Made by a program: the position numbers and the translations under genes
The notes under the pieces: model-generated
Told to the model about the DNA's origin: nothing
Databases searched by the model: none
What the model saw: the letters and a program-made list of their open reading frames with translations, nothing else
From: a virus
UHGV virus genome: UHGV-0253772
Strand: one strand, 5' to 3'
DNA: 44,914 nucleotides
Shown: positions 3,869-25,033 of the stretch, in pieces
Layout of the letters: every line of letters begins with the position of its first letter
Numbering within the stretch: position 1 is the stretch's first letter

Positions 3869-4972
3869 TTAGTCTTTGGCGTCAGCACGAACATCTACCA
3901 GCAACTGAGGACGAGTACAGTATGGCAGCATGTAAGAGTGAGCTTCAAAGTCAATACCTTCGTCACGGTCTTTTTCGTATTCGAATACGTACAGTTCCTG
4001 ACCAAGTGTATTTGCGTAACCCATCTTAGGACATGGACCATAAGCCACTTCGAAGATGTTGTTTGCTTCACCCAGCATAGAAACGTTAGGGAAGGCATGA
4101 CCAACACCAACAGTTGCTGCTGCACCATCAATGCTCACCAGAGTGTGAACCTTACCGCGCTTGTCTTTGAACTTACCGTTGTACTGGACAAACTTAACAC
4201 CACCGTAGTAGAAGGTGTTCATATGAGCCTGAACGCCGTCAGTACCACCAGTTCTCAGAGAACCAGTAATCTGTTGCCAAGCCAGCGGAGTCTGCTGTGC
4301 AAGATAAGCGTCACGAATCTTAGGATGTTTAGTCAGCTTGCTGAAGAACACACGGTCAACAACTACGTGAATTTCTTCACCGTTGATTACAGTGCCAGTC
4401 TTAGCTTCATCTTCCATGTGCATACGCAGTTCTTCAATAGAAGCGTCGATATCCGCATTAGGGTTGTCAAGGTCGAAGTAAACAGTCTTCTTCTCAACAT
4501 CGAACTGCTTGTACAGGTCAGCGTACAGAGTACCACGAGCATCGACAACTTTACCCTTCAGAGCTTGCATAAACAGGAACTCACGAGTAATATCGAACTT
4601 GGTACGAATCTTCATCAGCTTCTTAGCACGTACTACAGCTTCAGTAGTAAGCTCGTTTGCAGTGCCTGGCTGACGTACACCCTGAATTTCATCAGGAGTG
4701 ATGCTTTCAACTTCTTTGAAGTACATCATTGGGAAGCTGATTTGACGAACACGCTCAGGTGCGCTAGTCTCTGCTTTACGGCTATCACGGTCTACCGCAT
4801 CAAGCAAGCTAACATCCCAATCAGTCAAGTCCATAAGGAAAGTAGTTTGGGTGATTGGTGCTGAACGGAACAGACCTAAGTTGGAAATATACCCATAAGT
4901 ATTTGGGATAGACTGGACTTCACCAGTCAGGTCAGCAAGGAAAAATCTGCTTTTTTCAGAATTAGTCAACAT
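3869..4972 (-). CDS. major capsid protein (lambda gpE-like family)
   Basis: 367 aa, follows protease and decoration-like genes; sequence pattern resembles gpE-type capsid proteins; ATG start verified. Confidence 0.75.
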   Translation of the reverse strand: MLTNSEKSRFFLADLTGEVQSIPNTYGYISNLGLFRSAPITQTTFLMDLTDWDVSLLDAVDRDSRKAETSAPERVRQISFPMMYFKEVESITPDEIQGVRQPGTANELTTEAVVRAKKLMKIRTKFDITREFLFMQALKGKVVDARGTLYADLYKQFDVEKKTVYFDLDNPNADIDASIEELRMHMEDEAKTGTVINGEEIHVVVDRVFFSKLTKHPKIRDAYLAQQTPLAWQQITGSLRTGGTDGVQAHMNTFYYGGVKFVQYNGKFKDKRGKVHTLVSIDGAAATVGVGHAFPNVSMLGEANNIFEVAYGPCPKMGYANTLGQELYVFEYEKDRDEGIDFEAHSYMLPYCTRPQLLVDVRADAKD

Positions 4973-17066: not shown

Positions 17067-18482
17067 TTACCAGATGTAACGGTCAAGCATTACTGCTTTG
17101 AGCATTACGCTGATTGGGTCAAACTTCTCACCACCAAGCAGAGCTTTTAAAGTGGCTGGAGAGAACCCTGATACCATTGCTACACCATTATCCTTAACAG
17201 ATACTTCGCAAGTACCATTACGGTTTGCTAAGTACCAGAATACTAGTTGTGGCATTTCGTATCCAGCTTTTTTGTACTTACTCTGAATTGCTTCAAAGTT
17301 TGTACGACCATTTGCACCATCAACCTGATTAAACTCCATATCAGAGAAGATAATAAGCTTACTTGGCATATCTTTCTGAGTCAAGTTGTTTCTCTTACCT
17401 GTTTCAAGAATGCGGTCAAAAGCTGCTTGTAAGTTAGTTGAGCCATATTCAACGTGTCGCATCACCTGACGATGACGGTTTCGTAAATCACCACTCAGTT
17501 CGATGAAGTGAGGGTTTGTTGAATAAACCATTAACTCATTCTTAAAGCAACCTGTATTGCGTTCTGCTACATACAAGGCAAGTGATACACCAATATCCAG
17601 AGCAGTAATGGAGCCAAAATTCACCCAAGACATTGAACTTGATACATCAGACATACACAAGATGTTTTCACCTTCTGCCATCCAGTTTGGTAGTGCTTTC
17701 CACTGCTCATTAGCAACATCTGCATTACCATACTTGACAGATTTAATCACATCGTATGGGTAAACAGCACCAGCGTTAATCTTAGTCTCACCTTTTGATA
17801 AGGACTCGATGTAAGCTTTGTAACGCTCTCCATCTTTACGGTTAAACAGTTTTTGGTAACGTGCAGCAGCAAGTGAAGGAATCTTACTGTAGTCAATCTT
17901 ACCAAACTCATTAGCAGAGATTTTTTGCTCAACTGTATCAGATAGTGCAGACAACAGTGTGCGGTACTCTTTCTCACTCAAGTTGGCAAACTTGCAGAAA
18001 CGTTTTACAAACTGCTTATGACGTGGTTTGACTCGTGGCAACCACTTAGCCGCCAAACCTGCTGTTGCAGGGTCTAGTAATGCTGCTTCTAAATGTTTGA
18101 AGGCATCTGTCTCGAAACGAGTACCTACGAAGATTTTGAAGTCATCAAAACGACCAAGTTCTGCAATCTTATCCATAATGCGAAGAACCTGCGTAGACTC
18201 TAAAACTTTGTCTTCAATTGCTTGAAGCAAAACAGTTCTGAAGGCTTTACGCTCACCCATACCTTCTCGTACATCTCGCATATGAAGCAAAATACGAACT
18301 GCAACATCAACATCCTCACGCAAAGCTTTGTAGAACAGGTCTGGTAAGATTTCTACGTTGCTACGGCTTGAACCAGCAGCTTTGTAAAAGTCTACAAGAG
18401 CAGACATTGATGAAGTATGGTTTACAGCACCATTTTCAGTTCGACCTGCATGAAGGTGCGCATGTTTAAATAATTCGCTCAT
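17067..18482 (-). CDS. vWA-domain protein with N-terminal helical TROVE/DUF2828-like domain (Ro60-like architecture)
   Basis: 471 aa; MIDAS-type DxSxS motif (SDVSSSMS) at the start of a C-terminal vWA-like region; N-terminal 270 aa helical; family assignment from memory of domain architecture, not from a search. Confidence 0.4.
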   Translation of the reverse strand: MSELFKHAHLHAGRTENGAVNHTSSMSALVDFYKAAGSSRSNVEILPDLFYKALREDVDVAVRILLHMRDVREGMGERKAFRTVLLQAIEDKVLESTQVLRIMDKIAELGRFDDFKIFVGTRFETDAFKHLEAALLDPATAGLAAKWLPRVKPRHKQFVKRFCKFANLSEKEYRTLLSALSDTVEQKISANEFGKIDYSKIPSLAAARYQKLFNRKDGERYKAYIESLSKGETKINAGAVYPYDVIKSVKYGNADVANEQWKALPNWMAEGENILCMSDVSSSMSWVNFGSITALDIGVSLALYVAERNTGCFKNELMVYSTNPHFIELSGDLRNRHRQVMRHVEYGSTNLQAAFDRILETGKRNNLTQKDMPSKLIIFSDMEFNQVDGANGRTNFEAIQSKYKKAGYEMPQLVFWYLANRNGTCEVSVKDNGVAMVSGFSPATLKALLGGEKFDPISVMLKAVMLDRYIW

Positions 18483-18935: not shown

Positions 18936-19184
18936 TGGTATGCCTCTTATAAGACCTCTTAAAAGGCTTTTAAGATAAAAGATAGATATCCAGAAAGATA
19001 TCTGTTTAAATAGCCTTTTTAGAGGAACCTTTTAAGTTATCTTCTAAGTATTTATAAGCCTACACCTTGTCAAGTACTTTGTCAACAACTTTTTTAACTT
19101 GTAATAGTTCTTGACTTGTTGTATGGATTACTGTACCATCTTACTTAAAGCTGTAGGTCTGCCTTGTTCTACAAAGGAGACTTA

Positions 19185-19346
19185 ATGAGAAAATCAAATA
19201 AACCGAAGAAAGGTAAGAATACCAATCACTGTAAGGAATCAAAAAGGGTAGAGTTACTCTACTATTCATCCTCTGAAATTGGTCTGTACCTGTTCTTTCA
19301 AAATTACAGAAGACAAGAGGATTATCTATGTGTAGTTCCCAATTAG
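19185..19346 (+). CDS. hypothetical small basic protein
   Basis: ATG at 19185 with AAAGGAGA 7 nt upstream; first gene of the plus-strand block. Confidence 0.4.
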   Translation: MRKSNKPKKGKNTNHCKESKRVELLYYSSSEIGLYLFFQNYRRQEDYLCVVPN

Positions 19347-19561
19347 AAATCGCAGATATTATAGATTTATATCAAACTGCAAAGAGTCATGGTTATATAA
19401 CCTCAATTGGAAAGAATAGTCACTATGATGCTTTGACTGGAATGTATTTCAGGGCAATGGCTCAATCTAGTGAACAACACTTAATGGTTTCTTCCAGTGA
19501 GTTTACTTCGTTTCTCTATTGCAGCAAAATCATAAATCGCAGGAGAACTGAAAAATGTTAA
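19328..19561 (+). CDS. hypothetical protein
   Basis: 77 aa ORF, AAGAGGA upstream. Confidence 0.45.
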   Translation: MCSSQLEIADIIDLYQTAKSHGYITSIGKNSHYDALTGMYFRAMAQSSEQHLMVSSSEFTSFLYCSKIINRRRTEKC

Positions 19562-20145
19562 CAGTAACTTTTAATTACAATAGTGACGGCTCTGTATCAA
19601 TTAATTCACCGTATGCTAATGACCTCTTGAAAGAGTTAGTTAACCAGTGTGACAGAGGTCTTTTCTATGTTCAAAACTCTTTTAAACAAAAGACCATTGC
19701 TAATAATTTGATGCGCGTAACAGTGACTGCATCTAATCCAAACTATGACTTTGATAGTGAAAGTCCATATTCATTAGTTGCTCTTGGAGAGTCTAGTCAA
19801 TTTAAACTTGTATGCCATGACTCAGAAACATTTCTTAAGGTATTTTCCAACCTTATTCACAATAATAAGTATAGTTACGTTGATGGGAGTGTGAACTTCT
19901 ATCCAGCAAACTATACCTGTTTATTGGTTGATAATATGAGAAAGAGTAAGCAAGAGCCTACAGAAATTTCATTTGATGTGAACTCTAGTCCAGATGCAGA
20001 AACAAGTAACAGCTTTGATATGGATTATGCGCTATCGCTTAGTAAAAAATCCGAGTTCATTGATTATGTCAATGGATTTGGTTTTAAGTTTGATGAGAGT
20101 ATGAATCTCAAAAAACTTAAGAACCTACTTAAGACTAAAGCTTAA
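19555..20145 (+). CDS. hypothetical protein
   Basis: 196 aa ORF, CAGGAGA RBS. Confidence 0.55.
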   Translation: MLTVTFNYNSDGSVSINSPYANDLLKELVNQCDRGLFYVQNSFKQKTIANNLMRVTVTASNPNYDFDSESPYSLVALGESSQFKLVCHDSETFLKVFSNLIHNNKYSYVDGSVNFYPANYTCLLVDNMRKSKQEPTEISFDVNSSPDAETSNSFDMDYALSLSKKSEFIDYVNGFGFKFDESMNLKKLKNLLKTKA

Positions 20146-20192
20146 GTGTAGATAGGGGTTATTACCCCTTTTACTATTTATAAGGATATTTA

Positions 20193-20564
20193 ATGAAGGC
20201 TAAGAGTGCAAAAGACTTTTACTGCTTCCTACAATCCTACATCAATTCTGTGAAAAATGGTGAGCGATATAATCTTAATGATGTTATCCCAACACCTTTG
20301 ACATGGAGACTAAGTAAATGGCCTGAAGAAGATATCACATCGACGAGTGAACAACCTGCCTACAACCCTGAAATGCACATCCCAGATTCTGAAAACCTAT
20401 TATATCCAATGTTTCATATTGTTGGTCTTGGTAGATTTCTTATGGATATTCAATATGTGATTGGTAAGGGTTATGAGATTAAAGGTATTGTTGTTGGTGA
20501 TGTATCTTCACATCATAAAGGTTATTTTAGATTAAACGCACATTTAGAGGCTAAAAAGAAATGA
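20193..20564 (+). CDS. hypothetical protein, paralog of the N-terminal domain of the downstream Ig-like protein
   Basis: 123 aa; alignable by eye with residues 1-125 of the next ORF (shared YxxF..F..NVKxGxRY ... FxMDxQYxI motifs). Confidence 0.55.
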   Translation: MKAKSAKDFYCFLQSYINSVKNGERYNLNDVIPTPLTWRLSKWPEEDITSTSEQPAYNPEMHIPDSENLLYPMFHIVGLGRFLMDIQYVIGKGYEIKGIVVGDVSSHHKGYFRLNAHLEAKKK

Positions 20565-21694
20565 TTAAAGCAAAAACTTACCCAGACTTCAAAGAGTTTG
20601 TGAAGGGCTTCATTGCAAACGTAAAGGCTGGTAAGAGATATGATTTTAGAACATATCAAGAAGCTATTTTACCGCTTACCTATAGTTCATATTGGCCTGA
20701 AGCTGATATCGCAGAAGTTGAGAAGTTTGACTACAAGCCAGACTACAAAGTTCCTTTTAGTGATGAATTGCTTTACAGTGTTGGTGCACAGATGAGAACT
20801 GCTGATTTCTTCATGGATTTGCAGTATGCAATCATCAATGGTAAAGATGTTGACACAATTTACTGTGAATGGTTGGCAAGAGTTAAGCCGTTCTCAATGT
20901 TGAATGCTAAGTTGAAGGATGCTATCAAGCCACCATCAATTACTCAGCAACCAACCAATCAAACAGTAAATGAAGGTGGTACACTTACCCTAAGTATTAT
21001 TGCAACTAATGCCACTGGATATCAATGGAAGAAGGATGGTGAGGACATCTCCAGTGCCACTTCTGCAACTTACACAAAACAATCTGTAGTACCTGCCGAT
21101 GCTGGTTCATATACTTGTGTTGTATCTGGAGAGGCTGGGACAAGTGTTACTTCAGACGCAGCAACAGTTACCGTTAACGCACTACCTGTTATTACCAAGC
21201 AACCTTCTAGCCAGACCATCAATGAGGGTGGAAACATTAGCTTGGAAGTGACTGCCACAGGTGCAACGGGCTATCAGTGGAAGAAAGATGGCTCTAATAT
21301 TCCTTCAGCTACAAATGCTACTTATAGCAAGTCTGGTGCACTACCAGCAGATGCAGGTTCATATACTTGCGTTGTAACGGGTGCAGGTGGTTCCGTTACT
21401 TCTAGCCCTGCAACAGTAACTGTTAAAGCACTTCCGGTAATCACTCAACAGCCAACTAATCAAGAAATCACTGAAGGTGAGGTATTGACACTCAACGTTG
21501 TGGCAACAGGTGCAACGGGTTATCAGTGGAAGAAGGGTGAGGAAAACATCCCAGACGCAACGACTGCAACTTACACCAAAGAAGGTGCAACTGCTGCTGA
21601 TGCAGGAAGCTACACTTGCGTAGTGACTGGTGCAGGTGGCTCTGTAACATCTAATGCGGCAACAGTTACAGTTAACCCAACAGGGGAGGCATAA
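20561..21694 (+). CDS. protein with three tandem Ig-like domains and a unique N-terminal domain
   Basis: three about 80 aa repeats each with TGYQWKKDG ... ADAGSYTCVV ... ATVTV pattern; stop overlaps endolysin start (TAATG). Confidence 0.65.
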   Translation: MIKAKTYPDFKEFVKGFIANVKAGKRYDFRTYQEAILPLTYSSYWPEADIAEVEKFDYKPDYKVPFSDELLYSVGAQMRTADFFMDLQYAIINGKDVDTIYCEWLARVKPFSMLNAKLKDAIKPPSITQQPTNQTVNEGGTLTLSIIATNATGYQWKKDGEDISSATSATYTKQSVVPADAGSYTCVVSGEAGTSVTSDAATVTVNALPVITKQPSSQTINEGGNISLEVTATGATGYQWKKDGSNIPSATNATYSKSGALPADAGSYTCVVTGAGGSVTSSPATVTVKALPVITQQPTNQEITEGEVLTLNVVATGATGYQWKKGEENIPDATTATYTKEGATAADAGSYTCVVTGAGGSVTSNAATVTVNPTGEA

Positions 21695-22158
21695 TGCAAC
21701 TCTCAAGAAAAGGTTTAGATGCCATTAAGTTCTTTGAAGGTCTGAAGTTAGAGGCTTACAAAGACTCTGCCGGAATCCCAACAATCGGGTACGGTACAAT
21801 CCGTATTGACGGAAAACCTGTTAAGATGGGTATGAAAATTACTGCTGAACAAGCTGAACAGTATCTTCTCGCAGATGTTGAAAAGTTTGTTGCAGCAGTG
21901 AACAAAGCTATCAAGGTTCCAACTTCTCAGAATGAGTTCGATGCACTTGTAAGTGAAACATACAACATCGGTATCACAGCTATGCAGGACTCTACATTTA
22001 TCAAGCGCCACAATGCTGGTAATAAAGTAGGTTGTGCAGAAGCTATGCAGTGGTGGAACAAGATTACAGTCAAAGGTGAGAAGGTCACTTCAAACGGTCT
22101 GAAAAATAGACGAAGAATGGAAGCTGACATTTATCTTGACAGTGTATATCCAAAGTAA
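21694..22158 (+). CDS. endolysin, GH24 phage lysozyme family
   Basis: N-terminal GLDAIKFFEGLKLEAYKDSAGIPTIGYGT signature of phage lysozyme/muramidase with catalytic Glu. Confidence 0.85.
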   Translation: MQLSRKGLDAIKFFEGLKLEAYKDSAGIPTIGYGTIRIDGKPVKMGMKITAEQAEQYLLADVEKFVAAVNKAIKVPTSQNEFDALVSETYNIGITAMQDSTFIKRHNAGNKVGCAEAMQWWNKITVKGEKVTSNGLKNRRRMEADIYLDSVYPK

Positions 22159-22168
22159 TATCTTCATA

Positions 22169-22195
22169 GGCTCCTTCGGGAGCCTTTTTTATTTT
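22169..22195 (+). terminator. rho-independent terminator
   Basis: GGCTCC-TTCG-GGAGCC hairpin followed by T6ATTTT. Confidence 0.7.
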
Positions 22196-22209
22196 CTAAG
22201 GAGAAAGCT

Positions 22210-22608
22210 ATGAAACTTTGGGCTAGTGACTTTGGGACTTTTAAGTACACCCGTAATGGCTCGCTTGTACGCATTGTTGGAAATAATGTAGTTTCAAGAG
22301 GTGACAAGGTGTATACACGGTTTACTGTAGAGCTTGTTGAACTGTCACCTATTGAGTCTGTTAACAATGGTCTATTCAAGTTTGAGACTTACAATGTCAA
22401 TGAGCATGGACAATTCAACCCTCTTGGCGAAAGTGGACTTGATATTATTTCAGAGCACCCATTGACAAAAGAGCAACTTGCAGGTTACTATAAAACTGTT
22501 CTGGAAAGGCAGTTAGCAACACATGAACAAGAAGCTAACTACCATCTACAGCATTGCGAAAATTTAAGAGCAAAAATTGAACAAGCAGAGAGAGGTTTTT
22601 ATGAATAA
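22210..22608 (+). CDS. hypothetical protein
   Basis: 132 aa, AAGGAGA RBS. Confidence 0.55.
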   Translation: MKLWASDFGTFKYTRNGSLVRIVGNNVVSRGDKVYTRFTVELVELSPIESVNNGLFKFETYNVNEHGQFNPLGESGLDIISEHPLTKEQLAGYYKTVLERQLATHEQEANYHLQHCENLRAKIEQAERGFYE

Positions 22609-22990
22609 AGAGATTCAAGTAAAAGTTGACACGTTTGGGCATGATGGTCGTGAAGACGCTGGTCTTGCTGATGCAGTAATTTTTGAGTGTAATGGTAATA
22701 TCAGCCTTCGTTTTACAGGCTCAGGTAGCACACTACGTAGGATGCGAGATGATGCAGATGGATGCCCTGTATTTGGTTGGTATGACATGGAGTTCCCACT
22801 TTATGCAATCCATTATCCAGATGGTGGGGAAGACTGGACAACTCAATCAATCCGTGATGAGCTTAACGGCATTCCGGTTGAGCCAGAAGAGAAAGAGCCT
22901 GTTGAACTGACCTTTACATTCATCAAAGAGGAGAAGGTAGGTGATTTGTCAGTAACTGAAGCAATTCAAGTCTCACAGGTTATCCGTTAA
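22601..22990 (+). CDS. hypothetical protein
   Basis: ATG at 22601 with AGAGAGG upstream; the ORF-track start at 22577 is a TTG. Confidence 0.5.
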   Translation: MNKEIQVKVDTFGHDGREDAGLADAVIFECNGNISLRFTGSGSTLRRMRDDADGCPVFGWYDMEFPLYAIHYPDGGEDWTTQSIRDELNGIPVEPEEKEPVELTFTFIKEEKVGDLSVTEAIQVSQVIR

Positions 22991-23283
22991 TGAGCAAAGT
23001 ACAGGTTATTTTCCCTATTTGTGACTTCTCACTAGAGCGTGAACTTGACCTGTACGAAGAAATTACTGACGAAATCATCTGGTCTGTTGTAGAAGAGGCT
23101 ATCAAGAAACTGTATGGTGGCCTCTTAAACCCATCAAGTAAAAAGCTCACTACTAAGCAAGTAGCTGATACGTACACTTCATACGATGCCTACAACAAGC
23201 CTTTTGAAAATACCTGCTTTGACCTTATGGTAGGCAATAATAAAGTCAACTATTTCTTCGTCAGAGAGTTTAACGATGAGTAA
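22990..23283 (+). CDS. hypothetical protein
   Basis: 97 aa, coupled start TAATG. Confidence 0.5.
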   Translation: MSKVQVIFPICDFSLERELDLYEEITDEIIWSVVEEAIKKLYGGLLNPSSKKLTTKQVADTYTSYDAYNKPFENTCFDLMVGNNKVNYFFVREFNDE

Positions 23284-23620
23284 GCTCCATGTCGTAGTCT
23301 ACAAAAACTTCTCAGATATCAAAGAGTCTTTAACCAATAAGCTTGACATGCAACGGAAAAGACTCTTTTTAATGTACGATATTGACAACTACAACCATCC
23401 TAAAGAGTTCAACTACAAAGATGGTACAAAGGTTGTAGAATTTGAAGATTCTGTAACAGTGTATGTCAAACATGACTTACCAGCAAAGTACATAGGGATG
23501 TTAGAATACTATATATTCAAACATACAGGTATGCGTGGTGAATCTGTAAAGATATCTTCTGTAGAAGTTTTTGAGAAACCTAACACACAACTTAAAAAGT
23601 ATTTAATGAGGAAACTGTAA
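23276..23620 (+). CDS. hypothetical protein
   Basis: 114 aa ORF. Confidence 0.5.
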   Translation: MSKLHVVVYKNFSDIKESLTNKLDMQRKRLFLMYDIDNYNHPKEFNYKDGTKVVEFEDSVTVYVKHDLPAKYIGMLEYYIFKHTGMRGESVKISSVEVFEKPNTQLKKYLMRKL

Positions 23621-24210
23621 TGTCCGAAGAGCAACAGAATATTACCCCACAAGTAACACTAGTCCAACATTTTGGGAACATTGAAGGTTGTGTTGCACTT
23701 TTTCAACCAAGTATCAATTCTCCTGCAAAAGTCTGTAAGTTGACTATGAATGTCAACAATATCAGTGTTTGCCTTGTTGATGAAGTACAATACTTCAAAT
23801 TCAATGACAGAGAGGTTGATGCTGCACTATTGAAGTATCGAGCGAGCCTCGAAAAAGACATTGACCACAAAGAACTTGTAACACTGTTTGGTGACCTTCA
23901 CAAGCTTCTTGAAAAGGTTATTAAGCGTACATACTACATGAACAATGGTTCAATTGTCACAACTTTGATTTCTCCATGTATCTCAGAGCCAATTCTGACT
24001 GATGAAGGTGGATTCTACGTAGTGGCATCAGCAGATTCTGATTGGTGGATGAAAAATACAGCACTTAAGACGGTTATTGAGGCTATTCGTGAGCATATCC
24101 CTTCATTCAGCCCGTGGAAAGGTAAAGGTGATGACTTTATCGCATTGTTGAGCGAAGAAAGTAGCAAACGTAGTGCATTAATGCCTAAGAAATACTCTTG
24201 CCGAGTATAA
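23620..24210 (+). CDS. hypothetical protein
   Basis: 196 aa, GAGGAAA RBS, coupled start. Confidence 0.55.
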   Translation: MSEEQQNITPQVTLVQHFGNIEGCVALFQPSINSPAKVCKLTMNVNNISVCLVDEVQYFKFNDREVDAALLKYRASLEKDIDHKELVTLFGDLHKLLEKVIKRTYYMNNGSIVTTLISPCISEPILTDEGGFYVVASADSDWWMKNTALKTVIEAIREHIPSFSPWKGKGDDFIALLSEESSKRSALMPKKYSCRV

Positions 24211-24272
24211 AATATTGACTATAATGGGAGCTATCGAGAGGTAGTTCCCTTTTTAGTTTCTGGAGAATAGAT

Positions 24273-24818
24273 ATGCCTAAAGTAAAAGAACACGATAAAA
24301 TTATTCTGTATGTTAAACAAAACCCTTTGAAGAGTGTTGAGGCTGTTGTGACATATGTCTCACACAATGGTACAGTCTATTTTCGACCACTGAAGAACTT
24401 AGACTTTGATACTACACCAAACCACACATTTAGTACTTCTGCAAGACTGTGTGCAGGAACTGTATACTCAACCGCTGAGATTGAGTCCTTAGCTTTCACA
24501 GGTGCTTACAAGAACTTTATAGGGATTGCTTTAAAGGACTCTGAAGAAACTTTTAAGTTTTTCATGGAAACTAATAAGGGCTGTTATGCACATACTATGC
24601 CAGTTTTTAAGAGGGTTGGTACAGAGCTTGCTAGTAAGTGCGAAGAAATTAGCAGTGACCTGAAGGAACTTAAAGCATCGGTGCAGAATGCTGTTTACAT
24701 CATTGAAAGGAACCACTTAGAAGCTCTTTTCAGAGATATGTTGAAAGCAGGGTTTACTCCAAATGAAATCACAAGAGAGACTCAACGTCAGTTCAGAAAC
24801 GCTATGGTGAAAGAATGA
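24273..24818 (+). CDS. hypothetical protein
   Basis: 181 aa ORF, TGGAGAA RBS. Confidence 0.55.
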   Translation: MPKVKEHDKIILYVKQNPLKSVEAVVTYVSHNGTVYFRPLKNLDFDTTPNHTFSTSARLCAGTVYSTAEIESLAFTGAYKNFIGIALKDSEETFKFFMETNKGCYAHTMPVFKRVGTELASKCEEISSDLKELKASVQNAVYIIERNHLEALFRDMLKAGFTPNEITRETQRQFRNAMVKE

Positions 24819-25033
24819 AAAAACTAACTACAGTTGAAGATTACTACAAGCTGTCCCTATTAGAACAATATCGTAGGAGTCAGAATATCAGAAAATGCTA
24901 TGGTAAACACGCTGAAGGTGACTTTTACCGTTGCTACGATGCAGATTTAAAAGGTGTAACACCTAGAGGGAAAGTCCTGCAAAGACTTGTTGACCTTGAG
25001 TGGAACAAACGATTGAGAGGGGTTGGAAAATGA
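24815..25033 (+). CDS. hypothetical protein
   Basis: 72 aa ORF. Confidence 0.45.
   Translation: MKKLTTVEDYYKLSLLEQYRRSQNIRKCYGKHAEGDFYRCYDADLKGVTPRGKVLQRLVDLEWNKRLRGVGK

Follow-up and report, generated by a model that had tools for sequence, protein, structure and literature searches.

The gene at positions 20561-21694 (forward strand) of the window, by which is meant the whole 44,914-nucleotide stretch of viral DNA UHGV-0253772, very probably encodes the Felixounavirus hexamer decoration protein (Hex-Dec; gp20 of phage Sf14, gp36 of phage Felix O1), and the small gene upstream of it would be an old duplicate of the Hex-Dec capsid-binding domain (CapBD). This reading, to which a probability of about 0.9 can be assigned, is derived from comparison of the sequences with those of homologues. 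The predicted product has 377 residues, with an N-terminal domain of about 120 residues followed by three I-set Ig domains. The window belongs to a Felixounavirus, many isolates of the genus having 91-93.5% DNA identity to it across the block of three genes discussed here. The main object is already known, its structure and capsid site having been published in 2025. The small upstream copy of the CapBD is the only detail of the locus that has not been described.

Capsid anchor and Ig modules of Hex-Dec

The 377-residue protein matches, over its full length, both solved structures of the family: Hex-Dec of Escherichia phage JohannRWettstein (Bas63; PDB 9NCF, chain S; phmmer E 1.1e-299, residues 1-372) and gp20 of Shigella phage Sf14 (9C2D/9C3A, chain S; E 4e-171, residues 1-371 on the 9C2D chain). 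The N-terminal domain (residues 1-123, positions 20561-20929, forward strand) is aligned with residues 1-118 of the 9NCF and 9C2D chains and is 96-100% identical to that of Felixounavirus homologues. The published contact residues are all retained in the window, namely R79 and R107 of Hex-Dec and D221 of the major capsid protein (MCP). The latter, the binding partner of Hex-Dec, has 367 residues and is encoded about 15.6 kb away on the reverse strand (3869-4972), and its translation matches the sequence given for the MCP of Felix O1 in PMC3185647.

The Bas63 (PMC12609058) and Sf14 (PMC11821841) studies describe a Hoc-like monomer having an N-terminal CapBD and one to four predicted Ig domains, which binds only to the facet-edge, pentamer-proximal hexamers through R79/R107-D221 contacts. 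The gene, often misannotated as a tail protein, is separated from the structural module by more than 10 kb. Mass spectrometry detected Sf14 gp20 in virions, and Felix O1 gp36 was found there with 14 peptides at 44% coverage. The location of the protein on the virion of the present phage is transferred from homologues with CapBDs 86-98% identical to its own. In the T=9 head, each of the 60 pentamer-proximal hexamers would take up one monomer, whose largely helical, pseudo-two-fold N-terminal domain of about 118 residues would insert into the hexamer centre, as was seen by cryo-EM in Bas63 and Sf14, and would be anchored there in part by salt bridges from Arg79 and Arg107 to Asp221 of the MCP. 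The sequence-only reading proposed two functions, of which one, a Hoc-like decoration of the virion that is out of place among lysis genes, is borne out by the cryo-EM structures of near-identical homologues.

From the anchor, the Ig-like domains, of which this phage has three, would project outwards as an acidic and flexible string. The first is situated at positions 20930-21181 (residues 124-207) and the second at 21182-21430 (residues 208-290), the boundaries being taken from the Pfam matches (Ig_3, I-set and Ig_2 for the first) and from the repeats. The third, at 21431-21679 (residues 291-373), corresponds to the last, fourth Ig domain of Bas63 Hex-Dec. All three are on the forward strand. 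The domain search suggested in the sequence-only reading matched Ig-fold families (Ig_3, E 8.8e-33; Ig_2, 4.1e-27; I-set, 3.3e-25), with three stretches each. The three Ig repeats of 80 residues that had been seen in the sequence are thus present, but they are not near-identical, since pairwise identity between modules is 67-71% at the protein level and 65-67% at the DNA level. Exact DNA words common to the modules are at most 13-14 nucleotides long, and the divergence of the DNA is too great for Tandem Repeats Finder, which reported nothing between 19000 and 23500. The number of Ig modules in homologues is one, two, three or four, giving lengths of 210, 294, 377 and 461 residues, and the single-Ig homologue is a hybrid with its crossover within the conserved TGYQWKK motif. 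Such variation among homologues supports the idea that the repeats are prone to recombination, although the repeats in the window have low DNA identity to one another.

Bas63 is the closer of the two solved relatives in its CapBD (about 96% identical) and has the same Ig module family and the same order of paralog, Hex-Dec and lysin, but it carries four Ig modules (460 residues) against three (377 residues) in the window, which has no equivalent of Bas63 Ig3. Sf14 belongs to another genus, Mooglevirus, and its CapBD is about 86% identical. Like the window protein, its gp20 has three Ig modules, a capsid-binding domain at the N-terminus (118 residues), R79 and R107, with D221 in the MCP, an upstream paralog (gp21) and a downstream lysin (gp19). 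In Sf14 the stop of gp20 is followed by 8 nucleotides before gp19 begins, compared with a one-base overlap in the window.

The likeness to T4 Hoc, which is non-essential in T4, lies in a monomer at the hexamer centres, in a small capsid-binding domain from which Ig-like domains project in a string, and in an acidic surface. The domain order is reversed, as the anchor is C-terminal in Hoc and N-terminal in Hex-Dec. Furthermore, the Hex-Dec CapBD is larger than the Hoc anchor and pseudo-two-fold; its topology is distinct and the two sequences are minimally similar, as the Bas63 authors reported (PMC12609058). Hoc-like PHROG matches with a reported extent cover only residues 121-290, that is, the Ig region, and no homologue of the C-terminal, capsid-binding domain 4 of Hoc was found in the 377-residue protein. 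The Hex-Dec anchor is an analogue of the Hoc anchor domain and not its homologue. In T5, the Ig domain of pb10 matches Ig3 of the window protein (PDB 5LXK, E 9.9e-12), but pb10 has a single Ig domain instead of three, and the match is limited to query residues 299-374, with no similarity detected between pb10 and the CapBD. The analogy with T4 Hoc suggests that the string of Ig domains may serve to adhere weakly to surfaces, to mucus or to other particles, and not to stabilise the capsid. A mouse study of a Citrobacter Felixounavirus contains no Ig or mucus data.

The small paralog of the capsid anchor

The gene directly upstream (positions 20193-20564, forward strand; ORF37 of Felix O1, gp21 of Sf14, phrog_4463) encodes 123 residues without an Ig domain. 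Its resemblance to the N-terminus of the Ig protein, noticed from the sequence, is far beyond chance (BLASTP, 37% over 101 residues, E 4e-17). The identity to the CapBD is 36-37%, with the alignment falling in the N-terminal 100-120 or so residues of the Ig protein, the paralog and Hex-Dec give reciprocal cross-matches in PHROG (5.7e-16), and the paralog aligns with residues 3-118 of a solved homologue (phmmer E 1.7e-11). The homology spans both lobes of the CapBD and includes its core motifs (DF..F, G.RY, PLT, WPE.DI, LLY, F.MD.QY and LNA.L), but the position of Hex-Dec R79 is occupied by an invariant Gly. The gene has its own AAGGA Shine-Dalgarno sequence, and its final 40 or so nucleotides contain the ribosome-binding site of Hex-Dec.

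Of 28 IMG/VR loci, 26 have paralog, Hex-Dec and lysin together; in one of the remaining two the paralog is a pseudogene, and the other is on a contig that stops short of the lysin. All three genes are retained in a distant uncultured relative, in which the paralog is 43% and the CapBD 57% identical. This distant paralog (P0055) was not found in scans of IMG/VR or JGI metagenome contigs, while an exact-protein look-up did match. For the paralog the dN/dS ratio is 0.11, against 0.04 for the CapBD, 0.11-0.15 for Ig1 and 0.05 for the lysin. About 8% of isolates, which are viable phages, have the paralog pseudogenised; phages with such a natural pseudogene include SP116, mio, Tf and REP11. In Felix O1, RT-PCR placed ORF36 and ORF37 in the late class. 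The paralog would accordingly be an old, faster-evolving duplicate of the CapBD alone, expressed late with Hex-Dec and held under purifying selection, yet dispensable.

A profile search for the CapBD family gave only 12 clusters in 1.84 billion representatives, and all clusters inspected contain either paralog-type proteins or a CapBD joined to a display domain. A CapBD without an Ig domain also exists elsewhere (P0060). From an alignment of 24 sequences, AlphaFold2 gave a poor model of the paralog (mean pLDDT 60), and a Foldseek search of the PDB with it returned only weak ferredoxin/ACT-like matches (E > 0.1) and neither 9NCF nor 9C2D. The Sf14 authors noted that AlphaFold mispredicts the CapBD (PMC11821841).

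The most likely role of the paralog, inferred with low confidence, is that of a non-virion or sub-stoichiometric factor binding to capsid hexamers. A more specific proposal, which we regard as unlikely, is that this conserved late protein is an unrecognised hexamer ligand acting together with Hex-Dec. It may cap the 20 three-fold hexamers that are closed to Hex-Dec, it may sit transiently at hexamer centres on procapsids, or it may compete with Hex-Dec and so tune the number of Ig "antennae" per head. If the paralog is such a ligand, the invariant Gly at the R79 position would adapt it to hexamers of another geometry.

It is also doubtful that the paralog is a minor decoration of the capsid, for instance on the 20 three-fold-axis hexamers not bound by Hex-Dec or at portal-proximal sites. 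The retention of the fold-defining CapBD residues, the late expression with Hex-Dec and the purifying selection are consistent with such a role, as is the existence elsewhere of a CapBD without Ig domains. The Gly replaces precisely the residue whose contact was linked by the Sf14 authors to discrimination between the two hexamer types (PMC11821841), and R79 is missing as well from distant CapBD proteins that presumably bind capsids. However, both cryo-EM papers report no density on the other hexamers, and viable isolates carry natural pseudogenes. The mass spectrometry list published for Felix O1 virions, which gives top hits only, at coverage of at least 25%, and includes proteins of 9.7-13.7 kDa, does not contain gp37. 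The VpaE1 homologue (ORF40c) is annotated "hypothetical" and not "structural". The Sf14 and Bas63 structure papers make no mention of the paralog, and the Sf14 supplements are silent on phage gp21.

The lysin, the gene junctions and the tail label

Hex-Dec is encoded outside the structural module, directly upstream of the endolysin gene, an order common to Felix O1, AYO145A, VpaE1, Sf14 and phiEa21-4. The lysin (positions 21694-22158, forward strand; 154 residues) is a homologue of Felix O1 gp35 and a complete, separate, single-domain GH24 enzyme (PF00959, E 8.9e-41; phrog_7, endolysin). Its own strong Shine-Dalgarno sequence, GGGGAGG at 21683-21689 on the forward strand, lies within the 3' end of the Hex-Dec gene and is kept as GGGGAGG or GGAGGGG across 19 loci. 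The block is bounded by two forward-strand hairpins, both annotated in the AYO145A record as terminators, the upstream one as rho-independent. Upstream, a pattern scan found a terminator-like GC hairpin with a T-run at 20154-20169, which is kept in 19 related loci with varying loop and stem; the strong hairpin at the block end (22168-22185) consists of AGGCTCC-TTCG-GGAGCCT followed by seven T residues. No sigma-70 promoter was found directly 5' of the paralog in a pattern scan, and the block is probably transcribed from a divergent promoter region near 19080-19140; with the corresponding promoter, a transcription unit of genes 40-24 was proposed in Felix O1. The Hex-Dec and endolysin genes would both belong to one leftward transcription unit, which would explain why they stand side by side in a terminator-bounded block. 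The temporal classes reported for Felix O1, in which the lysin ORF35 differs from ORF36 and ORF37, fit simple co-transcription of Hex-Dec and lysin awkwardly, though they were assigned by end-point RT-PCR.

The stop/start overlap with the lysozyme gene is real, the Hex-Dec stop TAA (21692-21694) and the lysin ATG (21694-21696) having one base in common (TAATG). The paralog and Hex-Dec genes overlap in turn by ATGA, and start and stop codons overlap at 8 of the 11 consecutive junctions in the gene block. The overlap with the lysin is therefore no sign of a special partnership, and overlapping codons of this kind are ordinary tight gene packing.

The other function proposed by the sequence-only reading, an accessory cell-wall- or glycan-binding module that acts with the endolysin, is very improbable and has been largely refuted; translational coupling of the genes would, on such a view, fix the stoichiometry. 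The genes do adjoin, their one-base overlap is kept across Felixounavirus, and Ig-like domains in general are capable of binding carbohydrates. However, the homologues are capsid components by cryo-EM and mass spectrometry, the N-terminal domain is a capsid anchor, and the lysin is complete and has its own ribosome-binding signal. A Pfam scan of the Ig protein found no cell-wall-binding families (LysM, SH3, PG_binding, CW_7 and similar), as all significant matches were to the Ig superfamily and others fell below the curated cut-offs. In Kolesnikvirus phiEa21-4 a terminator separates the Hex-Dec homologue from the lysin gene, in some Mooglevirus and Suspvirus loci gaps of 2-9 nucleotides take the place of the overlap, and Hex-Dec and lysin fall into different temporal classes in Felix O1.

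The Ig protein is most unlikely to be a tail protein, although it is so labelled in most GenBank records, in PHROG 3995 and, as "Gp36, major tail protein", in the Felix O1 paper. It matches phrog_3995 (E 2e-208) and further "major tail protein" PHROGs, but the matches to tail PHROGs other than 3995 are confined to the Ig region. Two independent cryo-EM studies, those of Bas63 and Sf14, place the N-terminal domain in the centres of head hexamers, report no such density on the tail and explicitly call the label wrong.

A CapBD-CapBD-Ig fusion, which would result from a programmed -1 frameshift into the Hex-Dec frame at T AAA AAG, close to the end of the paralog gene (GCT AAA AAG AAA TGA), was considered and rejected as scarcely credible: the site is not conserved (GAA AAG in wV8 and L006; gaggctaagaaATGA or gaggctaataaATGA in Mooglevirus and Suspvirus), the A-run is accounted for by a Lys-rich C-terminus, gp37 peptides are absent from the Felix O1 virion list, and phages lacking an intact paralog are viable.

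Implications for the Felixounavirus head

The widespread annotation of the Hex-Dec gene and of its small paralog as tail proteins is wrong and should not be propagated, and adjoining an endolysin gene with a start/stop overlap is no evidence for a function in lysis. Hex-Dec is a natural display scaffold with one to four swappable Ig modules. Beside it stands a separate copy of the capsid anchor, which purifying selection has preserved in Felixounavirus and as far as distant uncultured relatives. If the paralog binds capsids, the T=9 head would have in it a third component of its decoration, or a protein that regulates how dense the decoration is.

The Ig-like protein and the capsid

The region 20193-22158 is taken up by three open reading frames on the + strand. 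An ORF at 20193-20564 encodes a 123-aa protein without a Pfam domain (called the paralog here), followed by a 377-aa protein (20561-21694) having three Pfam Ig-superfamily stretches and a 154-aa lysin (21694-22158) with a full Phage_lysozyme domain (Pfam, 8.9e-41). The first two genes overlap in ATGA. The sequence-only reading had described a stop/start overlap with the GH24 lysozyme gene, and it is found as TAATG, with one base common to the TAA stop (21692-21694) and the ATG (21694-21696). The block matches 253 phage records in total, and its DNA is 91-93.5% identical to that of about 200 Felix O1-like myophages (Felixounavirus). In the Felix O1 record the lysin, the Ig protein and the 123-aa protein follow one another as ORF35, ORF36 and ORF37. 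The structural module also lies within the window, on the opposite strand to the block, and its 367-aa major capsid protein (3869-4972) matches the Felix O1 sequence. The minus strand at 17067-18482 carries a 471-aa ORF homologous to Felix O1 ORF42, an "RNA-binding protein" (DUF2828 in the Sf14 annotation), which in relatives adjoins the phage tRNA gene cluster.

A PDB sequence search with the 377-aa protein gave full-length matches to 9NCF chain S ("Immunoglobulin-like domain protein", 460 aa, E 1.1e-299) and 9C2D/9C3A chain S ("putative tail protein", 372 aa, E 4e-171). These belong to the cryo-EM structures of phage Bas63 (PMC12609058) and Shigella phage Sf14 (PMC11821841). In both, the hexamer decoration protein, Hex-Dec, sits as a monomer at the hexamer centers of a T=9 head, on the 60 pentamer-proximal, facet-edge hexamers only, leaving those on the three-fold axes bare. 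It is anchored by a capsid-binding domain (CapBD) of about 118 aa at its N-terminus, followed by a flexible chain of one to four predicted Ig-like domains that is not resolved in the maps; the gene is more than 10 kb from the structural module, and its usual annotation as a "tail protein" is wrong (PMC12609058, PMC11821841). The Bas63 authors call their CapBD pseudo-two-fold and name its lobes L1 and L2 (PMC12609058). In Sf14, Arg79 and Arg107 of the anchor form salt bridges to Asp221 of the capsid protein (PMC11821841), and all three residues are present in the window. Virion proteomics detected Felix O1 gp36 (31.6 kDa, 14 peptides, 44% coverage), then labeled "major tail protein", and Sf14 gp20 (PMC11821841). 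The full-length matches, the contact residues and the presence of homologues in virions identify the 377-aa protein, by homology, as a member of the structurally solved Hex-Dec/Sf14 gp20 family, of which it has every defining feature that a sequence can reveal. The earlier suggestion of a Hoc-like decoration misplaced among lysis genes was thus the correct one.

Like Hex-Dec, T4 Hoc and T5 pb10 are monomers at hexamer centers with projecting Ig domains. However, the anchor of Hex-Dec is N-terminal and topologically different from that of Hoc, and the Hoc-like profile matches with a reported extent span only the Ig region. Hex-Dec is therefore not a member of the Hoc family. When 1.84 billion representative proteins were searched with a profile, only 12 CapBD-family clusters came up, and those inspected were all either paralog-type or CapBDs fused with a module for display (I-set Ig, Big_2-like or, once, only a Lys/Ser-rich tail). 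The CapBD is a modular capsid anchor restricted to this lineage. A distant homologue lacking Ig domains, P0060, ends in a probably disordered 30-aa tail rich in Lys, Ser and Asp, and may be a minimal decoration protein.

The sequence-only reading had also offered a cell-wall or glycan-binding module that acts with the neighboring lysin, but this is contradicted by the capsid anchor at the N-terminus, by the lack of any cell-wall-binding domain in the Pfam scan, and by the lysin itself, which is a complete enzyme with a single GH24 domain and a conserved, strong Shine-Dalgarno sequence (GGGGAGG/GGAGGGG, 21683-21689) four bases 5' of its ATG. Start/stop overlap is the default packing here, as 8 of the 11 successive junctions on the + strand from 19328 to 25033 have overlaps of 1-8 nt (at most 32 nt if the raw ORF start at 22577 is used). 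Two of the other three junctions coincide with terminator-like hairpins (20154-20169 and 22168-22185), and the third is the site of a terminator annotated in the related phage AYO145A. In Kolesnikvirus phiEa21-4, a terminator is annotated between the endolysin and the orthologous 204-aa "conserved structural protein" (a CapBD plus one Big_2-type Ig), while Sf14 and several Mooglevirus and Suspvirus loci have small gaps between Hex-Dec and the lysin. The Felix O1 RT-PCR classes differ as well, with ORF35 at 25 min and ORF36 and ORF37 at 60 min. The adjacency is ancient within Ounavirinae and provides no evidence of joint function.

Ig module number and recombination

The Ig modules of Hex-Dec span residues 124-207, 208-290 and 291-373 (Pfam Ig_3 8.8e-33, Ig_2 4.1e-27, I-set 3.3e-25). 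The sequence-only reading had described three Ig repeats, but their "near-identity" was overstated: in the window the protein identity between them is 67-71% and the DNA identity 65-67%, the longest exact DNA words in common are 13-14 nt, and TRF reported no tandem repeat. Among 28 IMG/VR loci and the isolates, Hex-Dec is 210, 294, 377 or 461 aa long, corresponding to one to four modules on a constant CapBD, in agreement with the Bas63 paper (PMC12609058). The third module of the window equals the final one, the fourth, in the four-module form. The two-module form consists of Ig1 and the last Ig, joined at ATVTVNALPVITQQP, and the one-module form is a hybrid that begins with the N-terminal half of Ig1 and crosses over within TGYQWKK to the C-terminal half of the last Ig. 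One-Ig and two-Ig variants occur, for example, at L018:3501-4133 and L006:3501-4385 in IMG/VR relatives. These chimeras suggest in-register recombination between modules. The relatives bear out the proposal that the repeats favor rearrangement; the exchange runs through short conserved motifs, not long stretches of identical DNA.

The CapBD-only paralog

As the sequence-only reading noted, the paralog aligns with the N-terminus of the Ig protein, over its first 100-120 residues or so (37% identity, pairwise E 4e-17). The two have reciprocal PHROG matches (5.7e-16), and the paralog matches the PDB homologue in a database-wide search (E 1.7e-11). It terminates almost exactly at the CapBD end and retains the core motifs common to all CapBDs. 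The Bas63 and Sf14 structure papers and the Sf14 supplements do not mention it, and a literature search found no later papers using the term Hex-Dec; the paralog is the sole part of the feature without coverage in the searchable literature.

The paralog is a genuine gene: practically every Felixounavirus, Mooglevirus and Suspvirus genome has it, at 122-124 aa, and copies of at least 60% identity occur in 233 of the 253 records. Its dN/dS is 0.11 (CapBD 0.04, lysin 0.05); it is served by an AAGGA ribosome-binding site of its own, and Felix O1 RT-PCR places ORF37 with ORF36 in the late class. An uncultured, distant Ounavirinae-like phage (ENA ERZ28599557 scaffold_93, 87 kb; L039:3001-4726) keeps all three genes, whose products are a paralog of 122 aa, a Hex-Dec of 298 aa and a lysozyme of 154 aa; the genes overlap by 1 nt and 4 nt. 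Scans of IMG/VR and JGI metagenomes for the distant paralog were empty. The AlphaFold2 model of the paralog was of low confidence, and a fold search with it gave nothing meaningful.

Judged by identities, the paralog evolves faster than the CapBD (80-97% versus 95-100% within the genus; 43% versus 57% in the distant uncultured relative). It is 36% identical to the Felix-type CapBD and 25-28% to those of other lineages, and Kolesnikvirus and Hafnia phages show a single CapBD gene, which fits an in-lineage duplication after the Kolesnikvirus split followed by accelerated divergence. The R79 contact position is Gly in all paralogs, and that of R107 is His followed by a conserved Lys. Some distant CapBDs lack R79 too, so the paralog may still bind the capsid.

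The paralog ends in GCT AAA AAG AAA TGA (20550-20564), and a -1 shift in the AAA AAG run leads exactly into the Hex-Dec frame, so that slippage there would permit a fusion of the two. A -1 frameshift at T AAA AAG was rejected, as the site is not conserved: it is GAA AAG in the related phage wV8 and in L006 and is absent from Mooglevirus and Suspvirus junctions.

One pseudogenised allele, which has lost the start codon and about 180 nt internally, is common to the phages SP116, mio, Tf and REP11, whose origins include China, Denmark and the USA. The paralog is dispensable, because these phages are viable. The allele retains the last 90 nt or so, carrying the Hex-Dec ribosome-binding site. Its copies (L004:2809-3000, L035:1010-1200, L036:1009-1200, L037:1006-1197) are 97% identical to one another and, in these four phages, are followed by differing numbers of Ig modules. 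The allele may either have spread by recombination or mark a clade.

Our best guess is that the paralog would act as a late hexamer-binding factor, non-virion or sub-stoichiometric. The virion evidence is negative but thin: the homologue is absent from the published Felix O1 proteome list, which does include proteins of 9.7-13.7 kDa and consists of top hits with at least 25% coverage only, and neither cryo-EM paper reports density on hexamers lacking Hex-Dec (PMC12609058, PMC11821841). That the paralog decorates the three-fold hexamers is unlikely. Elsewhere in the virion, the Bas63 Fig. 3E legend mentions helical density that is unassigned, with two helices per 120° around the baseplate "PA" (PMC12609058). 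This points to one or more small virion proteins in the genus beyond those assigned; nothing ties the density to the paralog. The main feature of this region, the decoration protein, is already known and structurally solved, and the modest question that remains is the CapBD-only paralog.
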